DNA from: Dehalococcoidia bacterium
GTDB taxonomy: Bacteria; Chloroflexota; Dehalococcoidia; SHYD01
Direction of reading: 5' to 3'
Assembly: GCA_009692945.1 (NCBI GenBank)
Contig: SHYD01000004.1
Span: 5,910 to 69,909 of the forward strand
Length of the DNA stretch: 64,000 bases
The notes under the pieces were generated by a model that was not told where the DNA came from, ran no database searches, and saw nothing but the letters and a program-made list of their open reading frames with translations. Position numbers and translations under genes: made by a program. Positions within the stretch are counted from its first letter, which is position 1, and every line of letters begins with the position of its first letter. Of this stretch, positions 5,492-63,386 are shown one piece after another.

Positions 5492-6937
5492 ATGCCCCTT
5501 CGGACAGTTCAGCAATACAAGGCCTCCCTTCAGGACGGCCGGGCGGTCTATTTCGGTGGCGAGCGGGTGGCCGACGTTACGAAACACCCAGTGATAGGCA
5601 TCGCAGTGAACCACGCCTGCCTCGATTATTCGTTGGCGGACGACCCCAGCCACCGCGACCTGGCCGTGTTCAACGACCCGGCCACGGGCGAAACCTACAG
5701 CCGGTTCTTCCGGATCCCCCTGAACAGCGAAGACCTGTTGCTGCGCAGCCGGCTCATTGCCGAGACCACCCGCCAGGGGAAAACCCTGGTGACCCTCATC
5801 AAAGAGATCGGCACCGATTGCCTGTTCGCCCTGCACATGATTGCCGACCACATGGACAAGCACCTGGGTACCGGCTACCTCGGAAAGGTACAGGACTTCT
5901 ACCGCCACTGCCGGGACAACGACCTGGCCATGTCGGTGGCGCAAACCGATGTGAAGGGCGATCGCAGCCTCGGTCCCGCGGGGCAGGAACACCCCGACTA
6001 CTACGTCCGCATCGTGGAGGAACGAGCGGATGGGATTGTGGTCAGGGGAGCCAAGGTGCACACATCGGTGACGCCCAACTCGAATGAACTGTTCGTGATC
6101 CCCACCCGCCAACTCTCGGCCGAAGACCGCGCCTACGCCGTCGCCTTCGCCATCCCGACCAACACCCCCGGCGTCAGGATGATATGCAGTTCCTACGACG
6201 ACAGCGTGCCCAACGCCTTCGACCGTCCCATCACGTCCGAGCACCGGATGATGGAGACCCTGACCATTTTCGACGATGTCTTCGTGCCCAACGAGCGCGT
6301 CTTCCTGAAGGGCGAATGGCAGTATGCCGGACCCCTCGCCCGCGCCTTCGTCGAGTTCCATCGGTTCACGGCCATCTCGTACAAGTTGCCGCTGGTTGAC
6401 CTGTTGTGCGGTTCCGCCCACCTCATCGCCGAGCTCAACGGCATCGACCGGGCCGGCCATGTGCGCGACAAACTGAGCTGGCTCATCAGTTACGCCGAGA
6501 CGCTTCAGGCCATGACGCGTATCGCCGCGATCGAATGTTCCATGGAGGCGCCGGGGATCGCGGTCCCCAGCACCAAACTGGTCAACATCGCTAAGCTCCA
6601 CTTCGCCAGCAACTATCACCAGGCGCTGAGCCACGTCCAGGACCTCACCGGCGGCCTGCTGGTGACCGCTCCGGGTCTGGCCGATCTGGACAACGCCGAT
6701 ACCGGGGCCGACATCGAGCACTATCTCGGCGGCAAGAAAGGCGTGTCAGCTCGCGACCGGCTGCGCGTCATCAACCTCATCTCCGACCTGACCACGGCCA
6801 GCTTTGGAGGCTACCAGGCGGTGCTGGCCATCCACGCAGAGGGATCGATCGAGGCCGAGAAGATCACGATTCTCAGGGAGTACGACTCAGCCGGAGCGAA
6901 GTCGTTCGCTCGTTGGGCCGCCGGGATCGCACCGTGA
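5492..6937 (+). CDS. HpaB/AbfD-family protein (4-hydroxyphenylacetate 3-monooxygenase oxygenase-component family)
   Basis: 481-aa ORF with AGGAG upstream. DVKGDRSLGPAGQEHPDYYVRIVEERADGIVVRGAKVHTS is collinear with 4-hydroxybutyryl-CoA dehydratase/HpaB family sequences as I recall them. The AbfD Fe-S cysteines appear absent. Confidence 0.75.
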   Translation: MPLRTVQQYKASLQDGRAVYFGGERVADVTKHPVIGIAVNHACLDYSLADDPSHRDLAVFNDPATGETYSRFFRIPLNSEDLLLRSRLIAETTRQGKTLVTLIKEIGTDCLFALHMIADHMDKHLGTGYLGKVQDFYRHCRDNDLAMSVAQTDVKGDRSLGPAGQEHPDYYVRIVEERADGIVVRGAKVHTSVTPNSNELFVIPTRQLSAEDRAYAVAFAIPTNTPGVRMICSSYDDSVPNAFDRPITSEHRMMETLTIFDDVFVPNERVFLKGEWQYAGPLARAFVEFHRFTAISYKLPLVDLLCGSAHLIAELNGIDRAGHVRDKLSWLISYAETLQAMTRIAAIECSMEAPGIAVPSTKLVNIAKLHFASNYHQALSHVQDLTGGLLVTAPGLADLDNADTGADIEHYLGGKKGVSARDRLRVINLISDLTTASFGGYQAVLAIHAEGSIEAEKITILREYDSAGAKSFARWAAGIAP

Positions 6938-18575: not shown

Positions 18576-18810
18576 CCCCCTCTCCTGGGAGGCTATTCGT
18601 TACCCACATCTTGGGGATACAGCGGCTCAGGAGTGTTGACTTCCTCCGTTGCGGCAAGACGGGGAGTGCAAGGGGGGCGAAGCCCTCCTGTCGGGGGCTT
18701 GGGGGTGTCCCCCAACAACAAAACCTCTCTTTTTTCTCTCTTTTCGGGGGTGGGGCAACAGAACGGGAGAGCCCGAATTGTGGTAACGAATAGCCTGGGA
18801 GGAGAGGGGG
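18576..18810. repeat. 29-nt inverted repeat pair (26/29 complementary) bracketing a module-A repeat, MITE-like or long-stem architecture
   Basis: CCCCCTCTCCTGGGAGGCTATTCGTTACC (18576-18604) versus GGTAACGAATAGCCTGGGAGGAGAGGGGG (18782-18810). Only the central GGG/CCC triplet is non-complementary. Confidence 0.6.
18624..18760 (+). repeat. GC-hairpin repeat, module A
   Basis: GGCTCAGGAGTG..GGGGAGTGCAAGGGGGGCGAAGCCCTCCTGTCGGGGGCTTGGGGGTGTCCCCCAACAAC..CTCTTTTTTC..CGGGGGTGGGGCAA. It is alignable by eye with the copies at 38504, 43377, 48263, 57172, 59474, 32485(-) and 63217(-). Confidence 0.7.
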
Positions 18811-30877: not shown

Positions 30878-30903
30878 CATCTCCGGCGCAACGTGTTCGG
30901 ACG

Positions 30904-30940
30904 CCCATGACCATGGGGACACCACCAGGCCATGAAAAGG
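30904..30940 (+). repeat. Repeat module C
   Basis: CCCATGACCATGGGGACACCACCAGGCCATGAAAAGG. Related copies are at 38337 and 43501. Confidence 0.55.
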
Positions 30941-31040
30941 AGGGGTTGTCGTTGGCTGCTGGGAGTTGGGCTTGGGTGGCGTGATCACCACCCCCTTGAT
31001 CCCCCTCCTCGGAGGAGGGGGCCGAAATAACGAAGATCAA

Positions 31041-31100
31041 GGTGAGGGGACGACCCCTCACACTCCCCGCCAGCGGGAGACCCGCTGGACACCCCTTTTC
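31041..31100 (+). repeat. GC-hairpin repeat, module B
   Basis: GGTGAGGGGACGACCCCTCACACTCCCCGCCAGCGGGAGACCCGCTGGACACCCCTTTTC, nearly identical to 43609-43668. Confidence 0.8.
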
Positions 31101-31181
31101 GCAGCAGAGTTGATGGGTCAGCGACCTACTGAGAGTTACTATCCGGCGTGCCGGAATTCCCCGTCGCTCTGGGTATCCGGG

Positions 31182-32420
31182 CTACAGCATCCCGAAACCA
31201 CCGAACGGCGTCTGCCGGGTCAGGGCAACGTCGCGGTGTTCCAGCGACGATGCCAGGATACCCAGGCAGACCTCGGTGGTACCCCGGCCCCAGGCCGCGT
31301 TGTGCAACGTCAGCGGCCGGTCCTGACTCCAGGCTCCATACATGGCATCCAACTCCCAGGACGTGTAGCGCCGCTCGTAGGCGGTTCCAGCAGGGACTGC
31401 GATAGCGGTCTGGGCATCATCGGTATACAGCTTGATCCCTTCGGGCGTTTGCCGCAAATCGCCGCGTTCACAGTTCACCAGCGTGATGCCGAAGTAGGCG
31501 TGATAACGCTCTCCCTCGCCGCTCAGGAGGCCGCCGCTGTTGGCGCGGAGACTGCCGTACCGGGTCGCTTCCTTGTGGGCGTACTCATCGTCACGGCGCG
31601 CAAAGCCCTCGATCTGCCGGCGGGAGTTGAGGTGGGTCGACAGACTCTGTTTGCGCCCCCGCAGCCCGATGTTCCCGGTCAGTTCGGTGCTGTCGAAGTG
31701 GGCATAGCCACTGTAAATGAGCGTGGCTGACGCACCGTTCTCAAACTCGAGGAACGCGGTATAGCTGCCCTCGATGGGGCGGGAAGGGTCGATCGCCGTC
31801 GTCGAGGCTCGCACGCTCCGGGTGACGCCCCCCGCCAGCATGCGGGCAATGTCCACCTGGATCGGCCCTTGCCGCATCACCAGCCCCTCGCCCTGGGATG
31901 AGTCCAACTCGTGCCGGTCCCGGGGGCGGTAGAACCAGTCGCTGTAGAACCAGGTGTTCACCATCAGCGGCCGCCCCAACCGGCCCGAGTGGATGATATC
32001 GGCCATCTTGAGGATGGCCGGGTCCAGGCTCTGGGTGTGCCCCACCAGCACTCTCACTCCCCGGCGTTCCGCGGCAGCCACAATGGCGTCGCAATCCTCC
32101 AGGGTGAGCGCCATCGGCTTGTCGGCAAGCACCTGTTTGCCGTGCTCGATGGCGGCCAGGGCGTGCTGGGCATGGAGCCGGTTGGGGGTGAGGATGTAAA
32201 CCGCATCGACGTTCGGGCTCTTGCAGAGGTCCTCGGCAGCGGCGTGGGTCTCTGCCCCGAATTCCGCAGCGAACCGTTCACGTGCCACCGTCCGGGGGTC
32301 CGCCCCCGCCGTGATCCGGACGTTGGGATGACTGGCAACCTCGGGCAGCAGCACCGTGCTGGCGACGCCGAGACCGATGATGCCGACCCGCATCAGCCGT
32401 TGATTCTCCGCTTGTGCCAT
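31182..32420 (-). CDS. Gfo/Idh/MocA-family NAD(P)-dependent oxidoreductase
   Basis: Rossmann N-terminus MRVGIIGLGVASTV, YILTPNRLHAQHALAAIEHGKQVLADKP, and a long C-terminal alpha/beta domain. Confidence 0.85.
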   Translation of the reverse strand: MAQAENQRLMRVGIIGLGVASTVLLPEVASHPNVRITAGADPRTVARERFAAEFGAETHAAAEDLCKSPNVDAVYILTPNRLHAQHALAAIEHGKQVLADKPMALTLEDCDAIVAAAERRGVRVLVGHTQSLDPAILKMADIIHSGRLGRPLMVNTWFYSDWFYRPRDRHELDSSQGEGLVMRQGPIQVDIARMLAGGVTRSVRASTTAIDPSRPIEGSYTAFLEFENGASATLIYSGYAHFDSTELTGNIGLRGRKQSLSTHLNSRRQIEGFARRDDEYAHKEATRYGSLRANSGGLLSGEGERYHAYFGITLVNCERGDLRQTPEGIKLYTDDAQTAIAVPAGTAYERRYTSWELDAMYGAWSQDRPLTLHNAAWGRGTTEVCLGILASSLEHRDVALTRQTPFGGFGML

Positions 32421-32484
32421 GTGACCCTCGTCAGATCATACTGTCAGAAATATCCCCCGGCCGACCTTCGCCATGGGGCCGGCC

Positions 32485-32644
32485 TATCCATTCAGTTTCA
32501 GGGGTTCAGGCGGCGTCAGCCACTTCCCCCAACCCAGAAAAAAGGGGGATTCTCTGCGGGGGGCACCCCCGCAGCCATGGCAGAGGGCTGCCGCCCTCGT
32601 GCACTCCCGCCCCCGATCCTGGCAAGGCTCGCCTGTGAACTCAT
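32485..32644 (-). repeat. Module A repeat, full-length ~160-bp form
   Basis: It begins TATCCATTCAGTTT and ends GTGAACTCAT, and is collinear over its whole length with 63217-63381. Internal hairpins are GCGGGGGGCACCCCCGC and GAGGGCTGCCGCCCTC. Confidence 0.85.
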
Positions 32645-32657
32645 ACGGACCGGCGTG

Positions 32658-34010
32658 TCAACCCTGCCGGATCACGAGTTCCCGCTGCAGTTCGGGCGCA
32701 CCCTCCAGGTCCCACGGGATCAGCGGTGGCTGGAGCGGCGGCAACAGCGCCTCGCCCGCCCCGGCCCGCCGGACCGCCTCGTCGAACAGATCCCGCACCT
32801 CTTGGAGCCGGGGACTGTAACGCGCCTGGTTCTGGTAGTCGCCGGGCAGGGGGATATGGAGCACGCTGCCCTGGTGATGCTCCTGCGGCATCAGGATGCA
32901 CTGGTTCTCGGCCGGATCCCGATACACCTCGATGGGGTCCTGCCCCCGCTCGACGGCATCAATCTGCTCCCGGAGCAGGTCGCGAAACATGATGATGCCG
33001 ACGTCGCTCTGCCCGAGGTGCTCCTTGTCCCGTTGGGCGATGGCGCCGGGGGTGGACCAGCTCAGCATGTCCTGGCCATCGATATGGTCGGCGATGAACC
33101 TGCCATCGGCTTCGAGCATGGGGACTTCATAATAGGGGACCGAATCTTGGGGCGGCACTGACACTCCGGTCCGGTAGGCGGTGTACCAGATGTGCCAGGT
33201 GTACTCGTCGTCCACCGGGACCCGGATCTGGAACGCCGACACTCCCCGGCCGTTGCCCACCCGGAGGATGTTGGGAAAGATGACCGGGTGCCCGATCCTC
33301 CAAGCGTCGTGTTCCTCGGAGTCGCCCTCCACCACCCGCCGTTTGATGAGACCATGTTCGAAGCGGGTGAAGCCGATCTTCATGTGGCGGCGCTGACGCT
33401 GCCCAAACCGCTCCAACTCGCCGGGACCCTTCCTACCCAGCACGTAGTTAAAGAAATAGCCGTGCAGCCACTCGACGTGGACGGGGTCCATGGAGTTCTC
33501 CATGGGCTGCACCCAATTACACGGCACCAGCGTGGCGCCGATCTGCCGGACCACATTGTCCCAAACGTACAGATCATAGCGGGGCAGCAGCGGGACCGGG
33601 GCAGGGCCAAGGTACGCGAAGATAAGACCACCCAACTCCTGGACCGGATAGGCCTTGGTGCGCACCCGCTCCTTGAAGGTGGAGTTCCACGGCTCCGCGG
33701 GCTGCTCGGTGCACTCGCCCCGATGGTTGAAGAGCCAACCATGGTACGGGCACCGCAGTCCCTGGTCCTCCGGAATGCCATACTCCATTGAGACACGGCG
33801 ATGGGGGCAGGGTTCGTCGATGAGCCCCAGGTTGCCGGACCGGTCCCGGTAGAGCACGAGGTCCTCGCTAAGGAGGCGCACCTTCTTCACGGGGTTGGCG
33901 TCCAGCTCAACACTGGCAGCCACGGGGTACCAGTAGCGGCGCAGCAGCCGCCCGCCAGGGGTGTCCGGGCCCACCCGGACGATCCGTTCGTTGAGTTCCT
34001 TGCTCAGCAT
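32658..34010 (-). CDS. Rieske [2Fe-2S] non-heme-iron oxygenase, alpha-type subunit
   Basis: CPHRRVSMEYG..CPYHGWLF (Rieske CxH..CxxH). The mononuclear iron motif is NWVQPMENSMDPVHVEWLH. Confidence 0.85.
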   Translation of the reverse strand: MLSKELNERIVRVGPDTPGGRLLRRYWYPVAASVELDANPVKKVRLLSEDLVLYRDRSGNLGLIDEPCPHRRVSMEYGIPEDQGLRCPYHGWLFNHRGECTEQPAEPWNSTFKERVRTKAYPVQELGGLIFAYLGPAPVPLLPRYDLYVWDNVVRQIGATLVPCNWVQPMENSMDPVHVEWLHGYFFNYVLGRKGPGELERFGQRQRRHMKIGFTRFEHGLIKRRVVEGDSEEHDAWRIGHPVIFPNILRVGNGRGVSAFQIRVPVDDEYTWHIWYTAYRTGVSVPPQDSVPYYEVPMLEADGRFIADHIDGQDMLSWSTPGAIAQRDKEHLGQSDVGIIMFRDLLREQIDAVERGQDPIEVYRDPAENQCILMPQEHHQGSVLHIPLPGDYQNQARYSPRLQEVRDLFDEAVRRAGAGEALLPPLQPPLIPWDLEGAPELQRELVIRQG

Positions 34011-38204: not shown

Positions 38205-38336
38205 GGGCGTTCCCCTTCTTATGTCCACTACCAGTTCGAACTCCGGAAGTTGCCCGCATTATAGAGCGGGGTCAGAGTAGCGTCAATTTTCAATCGGTCC
38301 GGTGTTCAAATCGAGCCGTTACGAGTTCAGACATCA

Positions 38337-38369
38337 ATGCCCAAGGGACACCACCGGGCTATGAAAAGG
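38337..38369 (+). repeat. Repeat module C
   Basis: ATGCCCAAGGGACACCACCGGGCTATGAAAAGG. Confidence 0.5.
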
Positions 38370-38443
38370 CGCGGGAGCAACAGCGCTTGGTCAGGTCATT
38401 CACCGCAGCGACCCACCCACCCGAGGGGAAAAAAGAAGAGGAC

Positions 38444-38494
38444 GATGAGGGGACACCCCTCAAACCCCGCCAGCGGGAAACCCGCTGGTCACCC
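38444..38494 (+). repeat. GC-hairpin repeat, module B
   Basis: GATGAGGGGACACCCCTCAAACCCCGCCAGCGGGAAACCCGCTGGTCACCC. Confidence 0.75.
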
Positions 38495-38503
38495 TTCCCA
38501 GGA

Positions 38504-38614
38504 GAGTTGAGGTTCGGACACGGGGGTGCGGGGGGCCGAAGCCATCCTGCCGGGGGATTGGGGGTGTTTCCCCAGAAATAACACTATTTCTTTTCTCGGG
38601 GGTGTGGGGCAAAC
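38504..38614 (+). repeat. GC-hairpin repeat, module A
   Basis: GAGTTGAGGTTCGGACACGGGGGTGCGGGGGGCCGAAGCCATCCTGCCGGGGGATTGGGGGTGTTTCCCCAGAAATAAC..TTTCTTTTCTCGGGGGTGTGGGGCAAAC. Confidence 0.7.
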
Positions 38615-38748
38615 GATCGAAGGGAAGCCCCTCTCGTGGCTGAATAGATAACCGGTCCGGAGCATTCCATCGGGTATCTTCTGACGTGCAACGCTGGGCC
38701 GTCGTAAAATACCCATCCAAGCTGCCCTATCCAGGAAGGAACAACGCC

Positions 38749-43272: not shown

Positions 43273-43376
43273 TCTCCCGGAATGGGGAGTCCATGGCCCC
43301 GCTGCGATTTGCCAAGGGGTACGGGGAACATCCCCCTGTAACTGCCCAGGGATGATGTTTTCCTGACCTTCGGGAC

Positions 43377-43463
43377 GGGAGTGCCAGAGGGCTAGCTCTC
43401 TGCCGGGGGAACTTGGGAGTGTCCCCCAAGAACAAATCTTCTCTTTTTTCGGGGGTGGAGCAA
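43377..43463 (+). repeat. GC-hairpin repeat, module A
   Basis: GGGAGTGCCAGAGGGCTAGCTCTCTGCCGGGGGAACTTGGGAGTGTCCCCCAAGAACAAATCTTCTCTTTTTTCGGGGGTGGAGCAA. Confidence 0.7.
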
Positions 43464-43500
43464 ACGGCGCGCACGCGTCCCCATCAAGAGTAGTTAGCCA

Positions 43501-48262: not shown

Positions 48263-48335
48263 GTAAGAATTCACTGTTGAGGGGCGGCCGGGCTCAGGAG
48301 TGGGAGTGCACGAGGGCGGCAGTCCTCTGCCGGGG
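48263..48335 (+). repeat. Module A repeat, 3'-truncated copy
   Basis: GAATTCACTGTTGAGGGGCGGCCGGGCTCAGGAGTGGGAGTGCACGAGGGCGGCAGTCCTCTGCCGGGGGTGTGGTGCC. Confidence 0.65.
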
Positions 48336-48450
48336 GTGTGGTGCCAACAACCGGCTACCGTCTTCTTCCCGTCTGCGTGGTTCGGCGTCAATGGCGCCGC
48401 TCGCGCTGGCACACCCGCCCCCAAGGTTTCGGGCCGGCAACTCTGAACCG

Positions 48451-57144: not shown

Positions 57145-57171
57145 TTCCGGATTCGGGGAGTCAGGGGGTAA

Positions 57172-57300
57172 GAGTTCACAAATTGAGGCTACTATCGGGC
57201 TCAGGAGTGGGAGGGCACGAGGGCAGCAGCCCTCTGCCGGGGGAGTGGGGGTGCCCCCACATATAATTCACCTCTTTTTCCCTGGGTTGGGGGAGTGGCT
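57172..57300 (+). repeat. Module A repeat (lacks the distal ~35 bp of the full form)
   Basis: GAGTTCACAAATTGAGG..GGCTCAGGAGTGGGAGGGCACGAGGGCAGCAGCCCTCTGCCGGGGGAGTGGGGGTGCCCCCACATATAATTCACCTCTTTTTCCCTGGGTTGGGGGAGTGGCT. It matches the reverse complement of 32485-32644 and 63217-63381. Confidence 0.8.
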
Positions 57301-57349
57301 CATATCCCCCGAACCGCTCACACATAGTAGTTCCGTTGGGGGGTATCGG

Positions 57350-57379
57350 TTGACATTCTCTTCTTAGCCTGAGTATCAT
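57350..57379 (+). promoter_or_regulatory. Candidate sigma70-type promoter for the RidA/SDR cluster
   Basis: TTGACA (57350-57355), an 18-nt spacer, then TATCAT (57374-57379), about 45 nt upstream of the RidA GTG. Confidence 0.35.
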
Positions 57380-57425: not shown

Positions 57426-57812
57426 GTGGCCAATCGTCAGGAGTTGGAAATCGCCGGGGTCGGGCATCCCCAGCCGTTCCCCCACGCCGTCAAGATCGGC
57501 AACATGGTCTTCACATCGGGCATCGACCCCATCGACCCTGCCACCGGCAAGGTTCCCGAGGGGATCGAGGAGCAGTCCCGGCTGTTGTTTCAGAACATCC
57601 GCACCATCCTGACCCAGGCCGGCGGTTCACCCGCCAACATCGGCCAGGTGACGCTGTACATGCAGGACCCGGTCCAGCGCCAGGCGGTGAACAAGTACTG
57701 GATCGAGATGTTCCCCAATGAGCACGACCGCCCCGCCCGCAAGACCCTGAAATTCGACTTCGGGGCCGCCTCCGGCATCCTGGTCCAGGCCCAGTTCATC
57801 GCCGTCGTGTAG
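57426..57812 (+). CDS. RidA/YjgF/UK114-family protein
   Basis: GTG start follows GGGAGGG. GNMVFTSGIDPIDPATGKV, IGQVTLYMQD. Confidence 0.85.
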   Translation: MANRQELEIAGVGHPQPFPHAVKIGNMVFTSGIDPIDPATGKVPEGIEEQSRLLFQNIRTILTQAGGSPANIGQVTLYMQDPVQRQAVNKYWIEMFPNEHDRPARKTLKFDFGAASGILVQAQFIAVV

Positions 57813-59473: not shown

Positions 59474-59600
59474 ACTCGGGATTCGGGTACGGGGGTGTGC
59501 AGGGGGCAAAGCCTGCGTGTCCGAGCTTGTCGAAGGGCCGGGGGACTGGGGGTGTTCCCCCAGAAACAACAATCTCTTCTAGTGGGGCCCGGGGAACGAC
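59474..59600 (+). repeat. Divergent module A repeat inserted between SDR paralogues 2 and 3
   Basis: GACTCGGGATTCGGGTACGGGGGTGTGCAGGGGGCAAAGCCTGC..GGGCCGGGGGACTGGGGGTGTTCCCCCAGAAACAACAATCTCTTC. Confidence 0.55.
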
Positions 59601-59697
59601 CGAGCAGCGGTCCCCGATGTCCGAACAGATACGGGCCGACGGCGCAGGCCGGTTCAACCGGCAGGCGCTTGACACAAACTGGATTCGAGGAGGCCGG

Positions 59698-60477
59698 ATG
59701 AGTATCGAAGGAAGGGTTGCGGTGGTCACCGGATCCGCCCGTAACATCGGGAAAGCCTGTGCGGTCGAACTGGCCCGCCAGGGGGCTAAAGTCATCGTCA
59801 ACGCCCGGAGCCGGGACAAGGTGGAGCAGGTGGTGGAGGAGATCCGGGCCGCGGGCGGGAAGGCGCTGCCCAGCTTTCACTCGGTGGCCACCAAAGAGGG
59901 GTGCGAGGGCCTCATCCAGGACGCGGTACAGGGGTTCGGCAGCGTGGACATCCTGGTCAACAACGCTGCGATCATCACCTACAACTACATTCACGAGATG
60001 CCCGATGAGGACTGGCTGAAGGTGCTGGAGACCGACCTCACCGCCTATTTCCGGACCACCAAAGCCGCCCTCCCGTATATGATGGAGAAGAACTGGGGGC
60101 GCATCATCAACATGTCGTCCCATGCGGGGTTGACCGGCACCAGCATGCGCTGCCACTACGCCGCAGCCAAGGGCGGGACTCAGGCCTTCACCAAGGCCAC
60201 CGCCAAGGAGTACGGCAAGTACCACATCACCGCTAACGCTATCGCCCCGTTCGTGGGCCAGGACGAAGAAGAGAACCCGGAACATTACGGCGCCATGTAC
60301 GGCGGACAGCCGGCCGAATTCACTGCGCTGAACACCGCGGTGTCCGCCGCGGCGATGGCGATCCCGGGCCGGTCAGGCCCCGAGACCGTGGCCCCGATGG
60401 TCGCCTTCTTCGCCTCGGAAGAAGCCTGGTACATCACCGGCCAGATCATCTCAGTGGGCGGCGGCCGCTGGATGTAG
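59698..60477 (+). CDS. SDR paralogue 3 of 4
   Basis: ATG 59698 follows GAGGAGG, inside ORF 59497..60477. MSIEGRVAVVTGSARNIGKAC. Confidence 0.9.
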   Translation: MSIEGRVAVVTGSARNIGKACAVELARQGAKVIVNARSRDKVEQVVEEIRAAGGKALPSFHSVATKEGCEGLIQDAVQGFGSVDILVNNAAIITYNYIHEMPDEDWLKVLETDLTAYFRTTKAALPYMMEKNWGRIINMSSHAGLTGTSMRCHYAAAKGGTQAFTKATAKEYGKYHITANAIAPFVGQDEEENPEHYGAMYGGQPAEFTALNTAVSAAAMAIPGRSGPETVAPMVAFFASEEAWYITGQIISVGGGRWM

Positions 60478-62072: not shown

Positions 62073-62239
62073 CCCCGCCACGGCGGGGGCGGCTCGCCAA
62101 GCTACCACGAAGAGGGAGACCGGCGCAGGTGTCCCTCTTGCATTCCTCCGAGAGCGAAACCTCCCCCGGCCGCCCATGCTATACTTACATTACTATCGAA
62201 TCAATAGTGTGGCATCGTCGCAGTCAGGAGGCTTTCGTC

Positions 62240-63214
62240 ATGCCCGCAGCACAGCCGAAAGATATGCTCGCCATCCCCCGAATCGACCGTCCCGCCCCCG
62301 GCGCCCGGTTTCGCCCGGTGCTGCACGTGGTGCAGGCGGAGCAAAAACTGGAGGGTGCCGGATTCCCCGTGCGCAGGCCCTTCCCGAGTGTCGACCTGAG
62401 CTCCGCCGACCCGTTCCTGATGCTCGATCACCTCGGCGCCATCGAGTATGCTCCGGGCGAGGCCAAGGGCGCGCCATGGCACCCTCACCGCGGCTTCGAA
62501 ACCGTCACCTACATCATGGACGGCGCCTTCCAACACCACGACTCGACCGGTGGCGCCGGCCTCATCGCGAACGGCTCAACCCAATGGATGACGGCCGGCG
62601 CAGGCATCCTCCATGAGGAGATGCCCACAGAGGAACTGGTCGCCACCGGTGGTCTCTTCCACGGCGTGCAATTATGGGTCAACCTTCCCAGTTCCCAGAA
62701 ATGGAACCCACCCCGCTATCAGGACATCCCGGCAGACCAGGTTGCGCTGCTGAGTTCGCACGATGGAAGCTCCTTGGTCCGGCTGATTGCAGGTGAACTG
62801 GGCGGACACAAGGGCCCAGGAGTCACCTGGACTCCCATCACCTACGGCCACGCCACGCTGGCGCCGGGTTCCCGCATGGAACTGCCATGGAGAACCGATT
62901 TCAGCGCCATGGTCTACGTTCTGGCGGGATACGGGACCGTGGGAGAATCGCGCCGGGTAGTGGGGGAAGGCGAATTGGCGGTGTTCGGCGCCGGCGACAC
63001 CATTGTGGTCGAGGCTGCGGAACAGCCCGAAGGCCCGTCAAAGAACCTGGATGTGCTGCTGCTGGGCGGACAGCCCATCGGCGAGCCGGTGGTGTTCTAT
63101 GGCCCCTTTGTCATGAACACCCGGCAGGAGATTCAGCAGGCCATCGACGATTACCGGGCGGGCCGCCTCGGGCGCATCCCCGCCGAGTTTCTGGGGCGGG
63201 CCCGCAACAATTAG
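62240..63214 (+). CDS. Pirin-family bicupin
   Basis: ATG 62240 follows AGGAGG. PFLMLDH, HPHRGFETVTYIMDG, QWMTAGAGILHEE, GPFVMNT. Confidence 0.9.
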   Translation: MPAAQPKDMLAIPRIDRPAPGARFRPVLHVVQAEQKLEGAGFPVRRPFPSVDLSSADPFLMLDHLGAIEYAPGEAKGAPWHPHRGFETVTYIMDGAFQHHDSTGGAGLIANGSTQWMTAGAGILHEEMPTEELVATGGLFHGVQLWVNLPSSQKWNPPRYQDIPADQVALLSSHDGSSLVRLIAGELGGHKGPGVTWTPITYGHATLAPGSRMELPWRTDFSAMVYVLAGYGTVGESRRVVGEGELAVFGAGDTIVVEAAEQPEGPSKNLDVLLLGGQPIGEPVVFYGPFVMNTRQEIQQAIDDYRAGRLGRIPAEFLGRARNN

Positions 63215-63216
63215 CG

Positions 63217-63381
63217 TATCCATTCAGTTTTAGGGCTTCAGGCGGCATCAACCACTCCCCCCAACCCAGAAAAAAAGGGGGGGGAATTCTTTTGCGGGGG
63301 GCACCCCCGCGCCCCTGGCAGAGGGCTGGCGCCCTTGTGCACTCCCGCCCCCGATCCTGCCAGCCTCGAATGTGAACTCAT
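63217..63381 (-). repeat. Module A repeat, full-length ~165-bp form
   Basis: TATCCATTCAGTTTTAGGGCTTCAGGCGGCATCAACCACTCCCCCCAACCCAGAAAAAAAGGGGGGGG..GCGGGGGGCACCCCCGC..GTGCACTCCCGCCCCCGATCCTGCC..GTGAACTCAT. It fills the whole gap between the convergent pirin and folE genes. Confidence 0.85.
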
Positions 63382-63386
63382 GCCGA

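Follow-up and report, generated by a model that had tools for sequence, protein, structure and literature searches.

Insertion sequences (ISs) of the IS66 family are recognised, as is generally known, by ends that start with GTAA and by the 8-bp duplication that accompanies their insertion (PMC12898284). ISDge4 from Deinococcus geothermalis, which belongs to the ISBst12 group, has the terminal inverted repeats (TIRs) GTGACTACTCAGCA and GTAACTGCTCAGCA, an 8-bp repeat and a 449-aa transposase, and its transposition, of the copy-and-paste type, has been observed (PMC12898284). At a smaller scale, the Correia/NEMIS repeats of Neisseria, ERIC/IRU of Enterobacteria and RUP of Streptococcus are elements of ~100-200 bp with TIRs and target-site duplications (TSDs) (see also PMC3184786). 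They are present in hundreds of intergenic copies, have a strong predicted secondary structure and can end up in transcripts. Here we describe a repeat that shares the traits of these small elements, found in a 64,000-nt stretch (hereafter the window; positions 5,910 to 69,909 of contig SHYD01000004.1, assembly GCA_009692945.1) of an uncultured Dehalococcoidia bacterium (SHYD01). It is unlike the Correia, ERIC and RUP repeats in that there is no sequence relation, in that the transposase family and the length of the TSD are different (Correia elements duplicate TA), and in that its core is conserved phylum-wide on several unrelated carriers. The element is very probably a MITE (miniature inverted-repeat transposable element): a non-coding, deletion-type derivative of ~165 bp in which the ends recognised by an IS66-family DDE transposase (single-ORF ISBst12 group; ORF, open reading frame) have been kept. 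This kind of element is already known; the unusual part is the conserved two-hairpin cargo. In our literature search we found no paper linking a MITE to the ISBst12 group and none describing this MITE family or its core motif.

The window comes from a metagenome-assembled genome (MAG; G000) of 2.50 Mb in 99 contigs, 81% complete and with 64.9% G+C. The preliminary description, made from the window only, had listed two full-length copies and a few truncated or divergent ones. Genome-wide, BLASTN located the repeat at 293 places, and an nhmmer profile built from 105 long copies (consensus of 166 nt, GTATCTATTCAGTGTCAGGGGTTCGGGGGTATGAGCCACTCCCCCCACCCCAGGAAAAAAGAGGAGAATTCTCTGTGGGGGGCACCCCCACTCCCCCGGCAGAGGGCTGCCGCCCTCGTGCACTCCCGCTCCTGAGCCCGGCAGCCCCTCAACTGTGAACTCTTAC) gave 454 matches, 103 of them end to end, which cover 54 kb or 2.2% of the genome and are found on nearly all contigs with differing flanks. 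In the alignment, the 105 copies share sharply defined ends: on the left GTATCTATTCAGTGTCAGGGG... and on the right ...CCTCAACTGTGAACTCTTAC. The consensus TIRs are imperfect (GTATCTATTCAG… / …GTGAACTCTTAC): the left end reads GTATCTATTCAGTGT-CAGGGG and the right end, as its reverse complement, GTAAGAGTTCACAGTTGAGGGG, whereas a minority of left ends, GTAAGAGTTCAGA or GTATGAGTTCAGA, are the exact inverse of the right end. Across all copies, 51% of the first 12 TIR positions form Watson-Crick pairs, compared to 18% in shifted controls. The TSD is exactly 8 bp long, as a single register stands out, with a mean identity of 5.2/8 versus ~2.1 in the other registers and a per-position identity of 0.58-0.71 within the eight bases versus 0.19-0.40 just outside. 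At least 7 of the 8 bases match in 43 of the 103 full-length copies, and all 8 in 24 of them; shifted registers mostly give 0-1 copies with at least 7 matching bases, and the adjacent, partly overlapping ones no more than 6. The 8-mers vary from site to site, which marks them as duplications; that they reflect a target-sequence motif looks unlikely. Most copies (85%) are intergenic, compared to 15% of random 130-nt segments, and they are spread across divergent, tandem and convergent gaps roughly in proportion to the available intergenic DNA; these figures, like all intergenic, gap-type and orientation figures in this study, depend on gene calls made with our own crude codon-usage caller. Both the number of copies and their location greatly exceed chance expectation. 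Full copies have a mean pairwise identity of 80% and a maximum of 95.5%, which indicates that the family is not freshly expanded.

These properties (TIRs, a sharp 8-bp TSD, a high copy number and, as described below, ends matching those of an IS66-family clade) bear out the suggestion of the preliminary description that the repeat is a non-autonomous, MITE-type element. BLAST searches of 401 Dehalococcoidia genomes from 222 genera recovered the full MITE in two genomes only, that of the window and G002; the latter is from a different genus within the family of the former. When contig C29 of G002 was compared with the genome of the window by tblastx, the matches were almost only MITE-to-MITE, and the two are not syntenic. 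A further genome, G008, carries a related MITE with the ends GTAACAGTTCA... / ...TGAACAGTTAC. Head-to-tail pairs of MITEs were also observed in the genome of the window, at C56:22137-22470, C18:1829-2208 and C9:17968-18343. In the C56 pair a single shared 8-mer, TGGAAATG, lies between the two copies and also flanks the pair, an arrangement that suggests dimer formation or repeated insertion at one site.

Seven of the 454 profile matches fall within the window, and the limits of the copies were set from the family consensus (Table 1). The two long copies, initially described at 32485-32644 and 63217-63381, are collinear from TATCCATTCAGTTT to GTGAACTCAT with 87% column identity and both contain the hairpins named in the preliminary description. 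Indels in homopolymer runs do distinguish them, as had been stated; however, substitutions occur as well. Copy B begins one base past the stop codon of the upstream ORF, and its flanking 8-mers, CAATTAGC and CGATTAAC, match at 6/8 positions. Two similar 160-bp stretches 30 kb apart could in principle stem from a segmental duplication or an assembly artefact. This explanation is so improbable that it can be set aside: the flanks of the two copies do not align and the likeness ends exactly at the element ends, the genome holds 454 copies with different flanks and their own 8-bp duplications, and related copies are present in G002. Of the shorter copies first reported, that at 57172-57300 had been thought to lack one end and proved to be essentially full length, whereas that at 48263-48335 is indeed reduced to its right part. 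The divergent copies proposed near 18624, 38504 and 43377 were all recovered as divergent partial profile matches. A divergent match exists close to 59474 too; however, it is confined to the core and is placed at 59491-59562. It is also the one that departs from the statement that all copies are strictly intergenic: the others lie between ORFs, as far as our crude calls can tell, but this one overlaps the predicted ORF 59497-60477. We think that the start of this ORF has probably been called ~200 nt too far upstream.

Table 1. Copies of the MITE, its parts and related variants in the window (positions of the 64,000-nt stretch)
Feature	Position	Strand	Evidence	Setting or remarks
Divergent partial copy	18655..18754	-	nhmmer model 37-134, E 2e-12	Core match 18660-18715, 56 bits
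Longer related variant ('Module B' of the preliminary description)	30890..31140	+	IS66-type end, ATGACC..GGGGACACCACC..CATGAAAAGG module	Ends ...CTGAGAGTTAC
Left TSD of copy A, GGGCCGGC	32476..32483	.	7/8 match with partner	Partner GGACCGGC at 32647-32654
MITE copy A, 163 bp	32484..32646	+	nhmmer match 32485-32645, model 2-165, E 8e-36; sequence read	Between start of ORF 31182-32420 (-) and stop of ORF 32658-34010 (-)
Two-hairpin core of copy A: GCGGGGGGCACCCCCGC, linker, GGCAGAGGGCTGCCGCCCTCGTGCAC, TCCC	32556..32610	+	Model R1, 54.2 bits, E 1.3e-9	
Divergent copy	38499..38649	-	nhmmer model 3-150, E 1e-8	Abuts second TIR-bearing variant 38319-38498
Divergent partial copy	43352..43468	-	nhmmer model 35-152, E 3e-13	Core match 43375-43429, 41 bits
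Truncated copy, right part only	48264..48344	-	nhmmer model 82-165, E 1e-18	
Near full-length MITE, right end GTAAGAGTTCAC intact, left end decayed	57169..57329	-	nhmmer model 6-165, E 1e-40	
Core-only divergent match	59491..59562	-	Model R1, 31 bits, E 9e-5; nhmmer 59537-59631, E 0.002	
MITE copy B, 168 bp	63216..63383	+	nhmmer match 63216-63381, model 1-164, E 1e-36	Fills gap between convergent ORFs 62129-63214 (+) and 63387-64040 (-)

A whole-genome Pfam search returned a sole DDE_Tnp_IS66 (PF03050) match, located on another contig in an intact IS (C55:219-1626; L038). The absence of a transposase noted in the preliminary description is thus confirmed for the IS66 type, as the window has no PF03050 match, other transposase families not having been searched. 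The C55 IS is 1408 bp long and has a single ORF of 443 aa (L038:227-1558, minus strand) with zf-IS66 and DDE_Tnp_IS66 domains, the TIR GTAACTACTCAG and a perfect 8-bp TSD, GGGGAAGT; it is inserted ~90 nt upstream of the genes for tRNA-Lys(ctt) and tRNA-Leu(tag). The closest relatives of its transposase are from Dehalococcoidia MAGs, in keeping with the class of the source. Relatives at 55-63% identity, including GTAACAGTTCAGAGTTG-type ones, are multi-copy in many of these MAGs, and the corresponding ISs are 1.43-1.48 kb long with ends GTAAC(A/T)GTTCAGAGTTG.GGGGAAA and perfect 8-bp TSDs; ISDge4 has a nearly identical TIR. The right end of the MITE, GTAAGAGTTCACAGTTGAGGGG, has 20 of the 22 bases of the TIR of this Dehalococcoidia IS66 clade, and the left end ~17/22; the right end starts with GTAAGAG and the left ends with GTAT or GTAA. 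The MITE thus resembles ISBst12-group ISs such as ISDge4 by its GTAA or GTAT ends followed by ..TTCAG, by its 8-bp TSD and by the presence, in its own genome, of a ~445-aa transposase with zf-IS66 and DDE_Tnp_IS66 domains. It differs from them in lacking a transposase gene of its own, in that most of its left ends are GTAT, and in its interior, a host-type structured repeat unrelated to the IS. Transposition has been observed for ISDge4; that of the MITE is deduced from sequence comparison.

We infer that the C55 transposase, or a close relative, moves the MITE and that this movement is of the copy-and-paste type. In such a mechanism the transposase, supplied in trans, would bind the imperfect TIRs and the element would be inserted into a staggered 8-bp cut, the repair of which would duplicate 8 bp of the target; copies would then pile up between genes, where insertions are presumably tolerated. 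An origin by internal deletion of an IS was considered and rejected: no likeness between the MITE and the IS extends beyond ~22 nt of the ends, and none of 30 full-length IS66 loci contains the core. As the core is neither in nor beside these 30 copies, it is cargo and not a relic of the IS, and an interior unrelated to the IS indicates a MITE of the TIR-capture type and not a simple internal deletion. Most likely, the MITE would have arisen when IS66-type ends came to flank a resident two-hairpin repeat unit.

Several observations weigh against an assignment to an IS66-driven MITE. Nothing points to very recent activity, as no pair of copies is more than 95.5% identical, and in 40 of the 103 full-length copies the TSD match is 5/8 or less. 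Most left ends start with GTAT and not with the GTAA of the IS family. The TIRs of the resident C55 IS differ from those of the MITE at 4-5 of 22 positions, and this IS may not be the true mobiliser. No PF03050 match was obtained in G002 (57% complete) or G008 (74% complete), both of which carry related MITEs. Finally, the core is more conserved than the ends, which simple selfish decay does not predict.

The preliminary description had also called the repeat REP-like. Repetitive extragenic palindromic (REP) sequences, together with the BIME and REPIN arrangements that they form, are short GC-rich intergenic hairpins of high copy number that occur in mosaics with other repeat modules, and here too the likeness is real; core units without TIRs, in particular, resemble REPs in their location. 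That the repeats described here are REP/REPIN palindromes spread by a domesticated Y1 transposase (RAYT, for REP-associated tyrosine transposase) is nevertheless highly improbable. In its favour, the ~87-nt unit of one complete genome, G286, starts with GTAG, and the genome of the window has one weak Y1_Tnp-like match, which scores 21 bits as a single stretch and 32 bits together with adjacent matches in the frame. However, the MITE form has TIRs and 8-bp TSDs, which are absent from REPs and not produced by REP/RAYT mobilisation. The search for a RAYT gene elsewhere in the genome of the window revealed no credible candidate (no PF01797 match at E ≤1e-5), and PF01797 is likewise without a match in G286, G323 (complete) and G383 (near-complete draft, 90 contigs), each of which has dozens of cores. 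Across a sample of 150 Chloroflexota genomes, PF01797 was detected in 6 of the 14 genomes with the core and in 59 of the 136 without it, 43% in each case. In addition, the core comprises two different hairpins with conserved single-stranded linkers and not one GTAG-tagged palindrome.

Within the MITE, conservation peaks internally: model positions 75-127 reach 0.90-1.00 per column, compared to 0.46-0.8 at positions 1-9 of the left TIR. This segment is the two-hairpin core. In the genome of the window, hairpin 1 is G(T/C)GGGGGGCACCCCC(A/G)C and hairpin 2 is GGCAGAGGGC-TGCC-GCCCTCGTGCAC, the two being joined by TCCCCC and followed by TCCC. The motif common to different genomes is ~55 nt long and reads NN-G5-ACA-C5-N'N', (N)CCCCCGG, CAG-variable stem-CTG, CACTCCC; it is often preceded by a C-rich tract of the (CCCA)n type. 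The compensatory changes that the preliminary description had proposed to look for were found. Within the genome of the window, T-A is replaced by C-G in 7 copies and A-T by G-C in 5; these pairs were counted on hand-defined columns, as homopolymer indels shift the pairs in the match columns of the 103 copies (RNAalifold). Across genomes, we aligned 42 cores gathered from ~30 genomes with a collecting pattern in which the G and C runs as well as the CAG/CTG base were fixed and the covarying positions were not. In this alignment 90% of the cells are paired, and in 8 pairs both partners have changed; hairpin 1, for instance, has an outer pair that is G-C (16), C-G (10), U-A (3) or others. The covariation score for both helices is 0.195, versus 0.076 in shuffled alignments (0 of 500 reach the observed value) and at most 0.09 with slid partners, these counts including related sequences. 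A covariance model of the core, R1, served for further searches.

Other readings of the core and its surroundings were examined. Searched over the window, Rfam 15 gave no match at the gathering score, and the element itself only chance-level ones (at most 16 bits, E >1, in a permissive search to E 10). An intrinsic terminator was rejected, since a simple scan of 57169-57329 and 63216-63383 detected no stem directly followed by a T-run; in the minus orientation of the consensus, a T6 run lies 12 nt beyond a hairpin. The rates of G-T and A-C mismatches in the stems have no strand asymmetry pointing to one RNA strand. A small peptide was also rejected. The consensus has, at positions 61-160, a Shine-Dalgarno-like GAGGAG, 8 nt and then a GTG opening a 27-codon frame that ends at a TGA in the right TIR; however, G and C runs of differing length break this frame from copy to copy, and the stems covary.

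We then examined the distribution of the core outside the MITE. By BLAST, it is present with 80-89% identity in 49 of the 401 Dehalococcoidia genomes, representing 39 of the 222 genera. With model R1, it was detected in 14 of the 150 genomes of the phylum sample, including members of other classes, and often in many copies: at least 38 each in G428 and G533, 33 in G441 and 25 in G417. In contrast, R1 had no match in five genomes of other phyla, and one weak single match in 100 further genomes sampled through other-phyla loci, the taxonomy of which was not given. The carriers differ. In G286, which has at least 45 copies, the unit of ~87 nt consists of GTAGTTCTTCCCACCCACCCGCCC, a spacer and the core, with no TIRs, and neither PF03050 nor PF01797 has a match in this complete genome. 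In G428, from another Chloroflexota class, a palindromic element of ~250 nt (L154 and L168, ~1480-1720) has two inverted cores around a GCCGCCTGCGGCGGC centre. The genome of the window itself has a second core-bearing family, CTGTACTTCCCACCCACCCACCC, core, GTGTTCGAACAGCTCGCCCAGGCA..., with ~25 copies (e.g., C56:8186-8235 and C52:30536-30585), as well as longer variants, at 20 places genome-wide, that combine the same IS66-type ends with a two-hairpin core that has diverged and with a conserved ATGACCAGGGGACACCACCGGGCCATGAAAAGG module. Two of these variants lie in the window (30890-31140, with its core at 31043-31096, and 38319-38498), and the 'Module B' repeats of the preliminary description are their cores. 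Taken together, these data indicate that the cargo of the MITE does not derive from the IS and represents one form of a two-hairpin module found in many copies, on different carriers, across Chloroflexota.

Some further features of these carriers may be mentioned. The second family in the genome of the window has a (CCCA)3-4 tract, the complement of which, (TGGG)n, is a canonical G-quadruplex motif; the equivalent in G286 is GGGCGGGTGGGTGGG. In G428, the G-rich strand has a pyrimidine tract, CACCTCCTTCTTTT, after the hairpin that resembles the 3' end of 16S rRNA. Many core units of G286 have GTAG-tagged REP-like palindromes beside them (e.g., GGGCACCCACGAGGGATGCCCCTAC; L170-L189, downstream), although this genome is without a PF01797 match.

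The orientation of the copies differs between the MITE and the cores devoid of TIRs. In co-directional gaps of the genome of the window, the C-rich strand is antisense to the genes in 122 of all profile matches and sense in 66 (p = 5e-5). Copies with both TIR ends have no such bias (35:29). When TSD quality was taken as a proxy for age, the counts, 14:10 for the younger and 14:14 for the older copies, did not separate insertion bias from selection. For copies with neither end, the C-rich strand is antisense in 51 cases against 21 (p = 5e-4); this class is defined relative to the MITE profile, and some of its members may belong to other variants that do bear TIRs. Cores outside the MITE profile have a ratio of 11:3 in the same direction, and those of G286 one of 16:3 (p = 0.004), with no replichore pattern. 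The type of gap differs as well: TIR-less copies are distributed 25/28/72 between divergent, convergent and tandem gaps, and intact MITEs 39/8/64 (chi-square p = 0.001). Having no orientation bias, the intact copies behave like a neutral DDE transposon, whereas the TIR-less cores behave as if orientation-filtered or functional at the 3' sides of genes. The proposal in the preliminary description of a structured RNA acting at 3' ends or on transcript stability hence does not suit the intact copies, which are unbiased, frequent in divergent, promoter-side gaps and devoid of a stem with a T-run; for the end-less core copies it is a possible reading.

These observations also bear on the main rival of the IS66-driven MITE, namely that selection maintains the element, or at least the core together with the C-rich tract next to it, as a structured nucleic acid with a function, for which the MITE would be one vehicle. 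We consider this explanation rather unlikely. Candidate roles would be those of an RNA element at 3' ends or between cistrons, of a hairpin bound by a protein, or of a barrier, specific to one strand, against antisense or read-through transcription. It would account for the core being the best-conserved part of the MITE, for the covariation of both helices across genomes, for its presence in many copies and on different carriers in many Chloroflexota genomes while being essentially not found in the ~105 genomes sampled through other-phyla loci, for its absence in or beside the 30 full-length IS66 copies, and for the strand bias of the TIR-less copies and their greater frequency in convergent gaps. 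However, the core has no Rfam match, no stem with a T-run and no mismatch asymmetry; intact MITEs are without orientation bias and common in divergent gaps; and the strand bias could equally reflect the loss of copies that do harm in one of the two orientations. Furthermore, the covariation counts include related sequences, the G and C runs (unlike the covarying positions) were set in the seed pattern, and the gene calls are crude. In a form that we put forward tentatively, as somewhat less doubtful, selection may be keeping the core, often with its C-rich tract, as a structured element throughout Chloroflexota; this element would act strand-specifically as RNA or single-stranded DNA and would have been picked up repeatedly, and spread, by different mobile carriers. 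It might act, for instance, at gene 3' ends or against antisense transcription, and its G-rich complement would be able to form G-quadruplexes. The IS66-driven MITE remains our preferred description of the element in the window.

Two additional features of the window touch the MITE copies. A near-consensus sigma-70-type promoter (TTGACA, 18-nt spacer, TATCAT; 11/12) is present at 57350-57379 (+). It lies upstream of ORF 57426-57812 and 20 nt past the MITE copy 57169-57329. Mechanical ORF lists contain frames of at least 100 aa that start inside MITE copies, such as 32473-32820 (+), and the automatic annotation of this genome likely holds spurious genes seeded by the repeat.

For practical purposes, the MITE fills whole intergenic gaps and yields spurious ORFs, and should be masked before regulatory or RNA-motif prediction in Dehalococcoidia MAGs. 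It may also contribute to breaks in short-read assemblies; in the genome of the window, 17 copies are no more than 200 bp away from a contig end. As a mobile element, it would be a natural substrate for a little-studied clade of ISBst12-group transposases. Of greater interest is the persistence, across the phylum and on different carriers, of a multi-copy module made of two hairpins and conserved single-stranded linkers. If the core proved to be functional, it would represent an undescribed regulatory or structural element at the level of the phylum, in uncultured bacteria with almost no experimental genetics.

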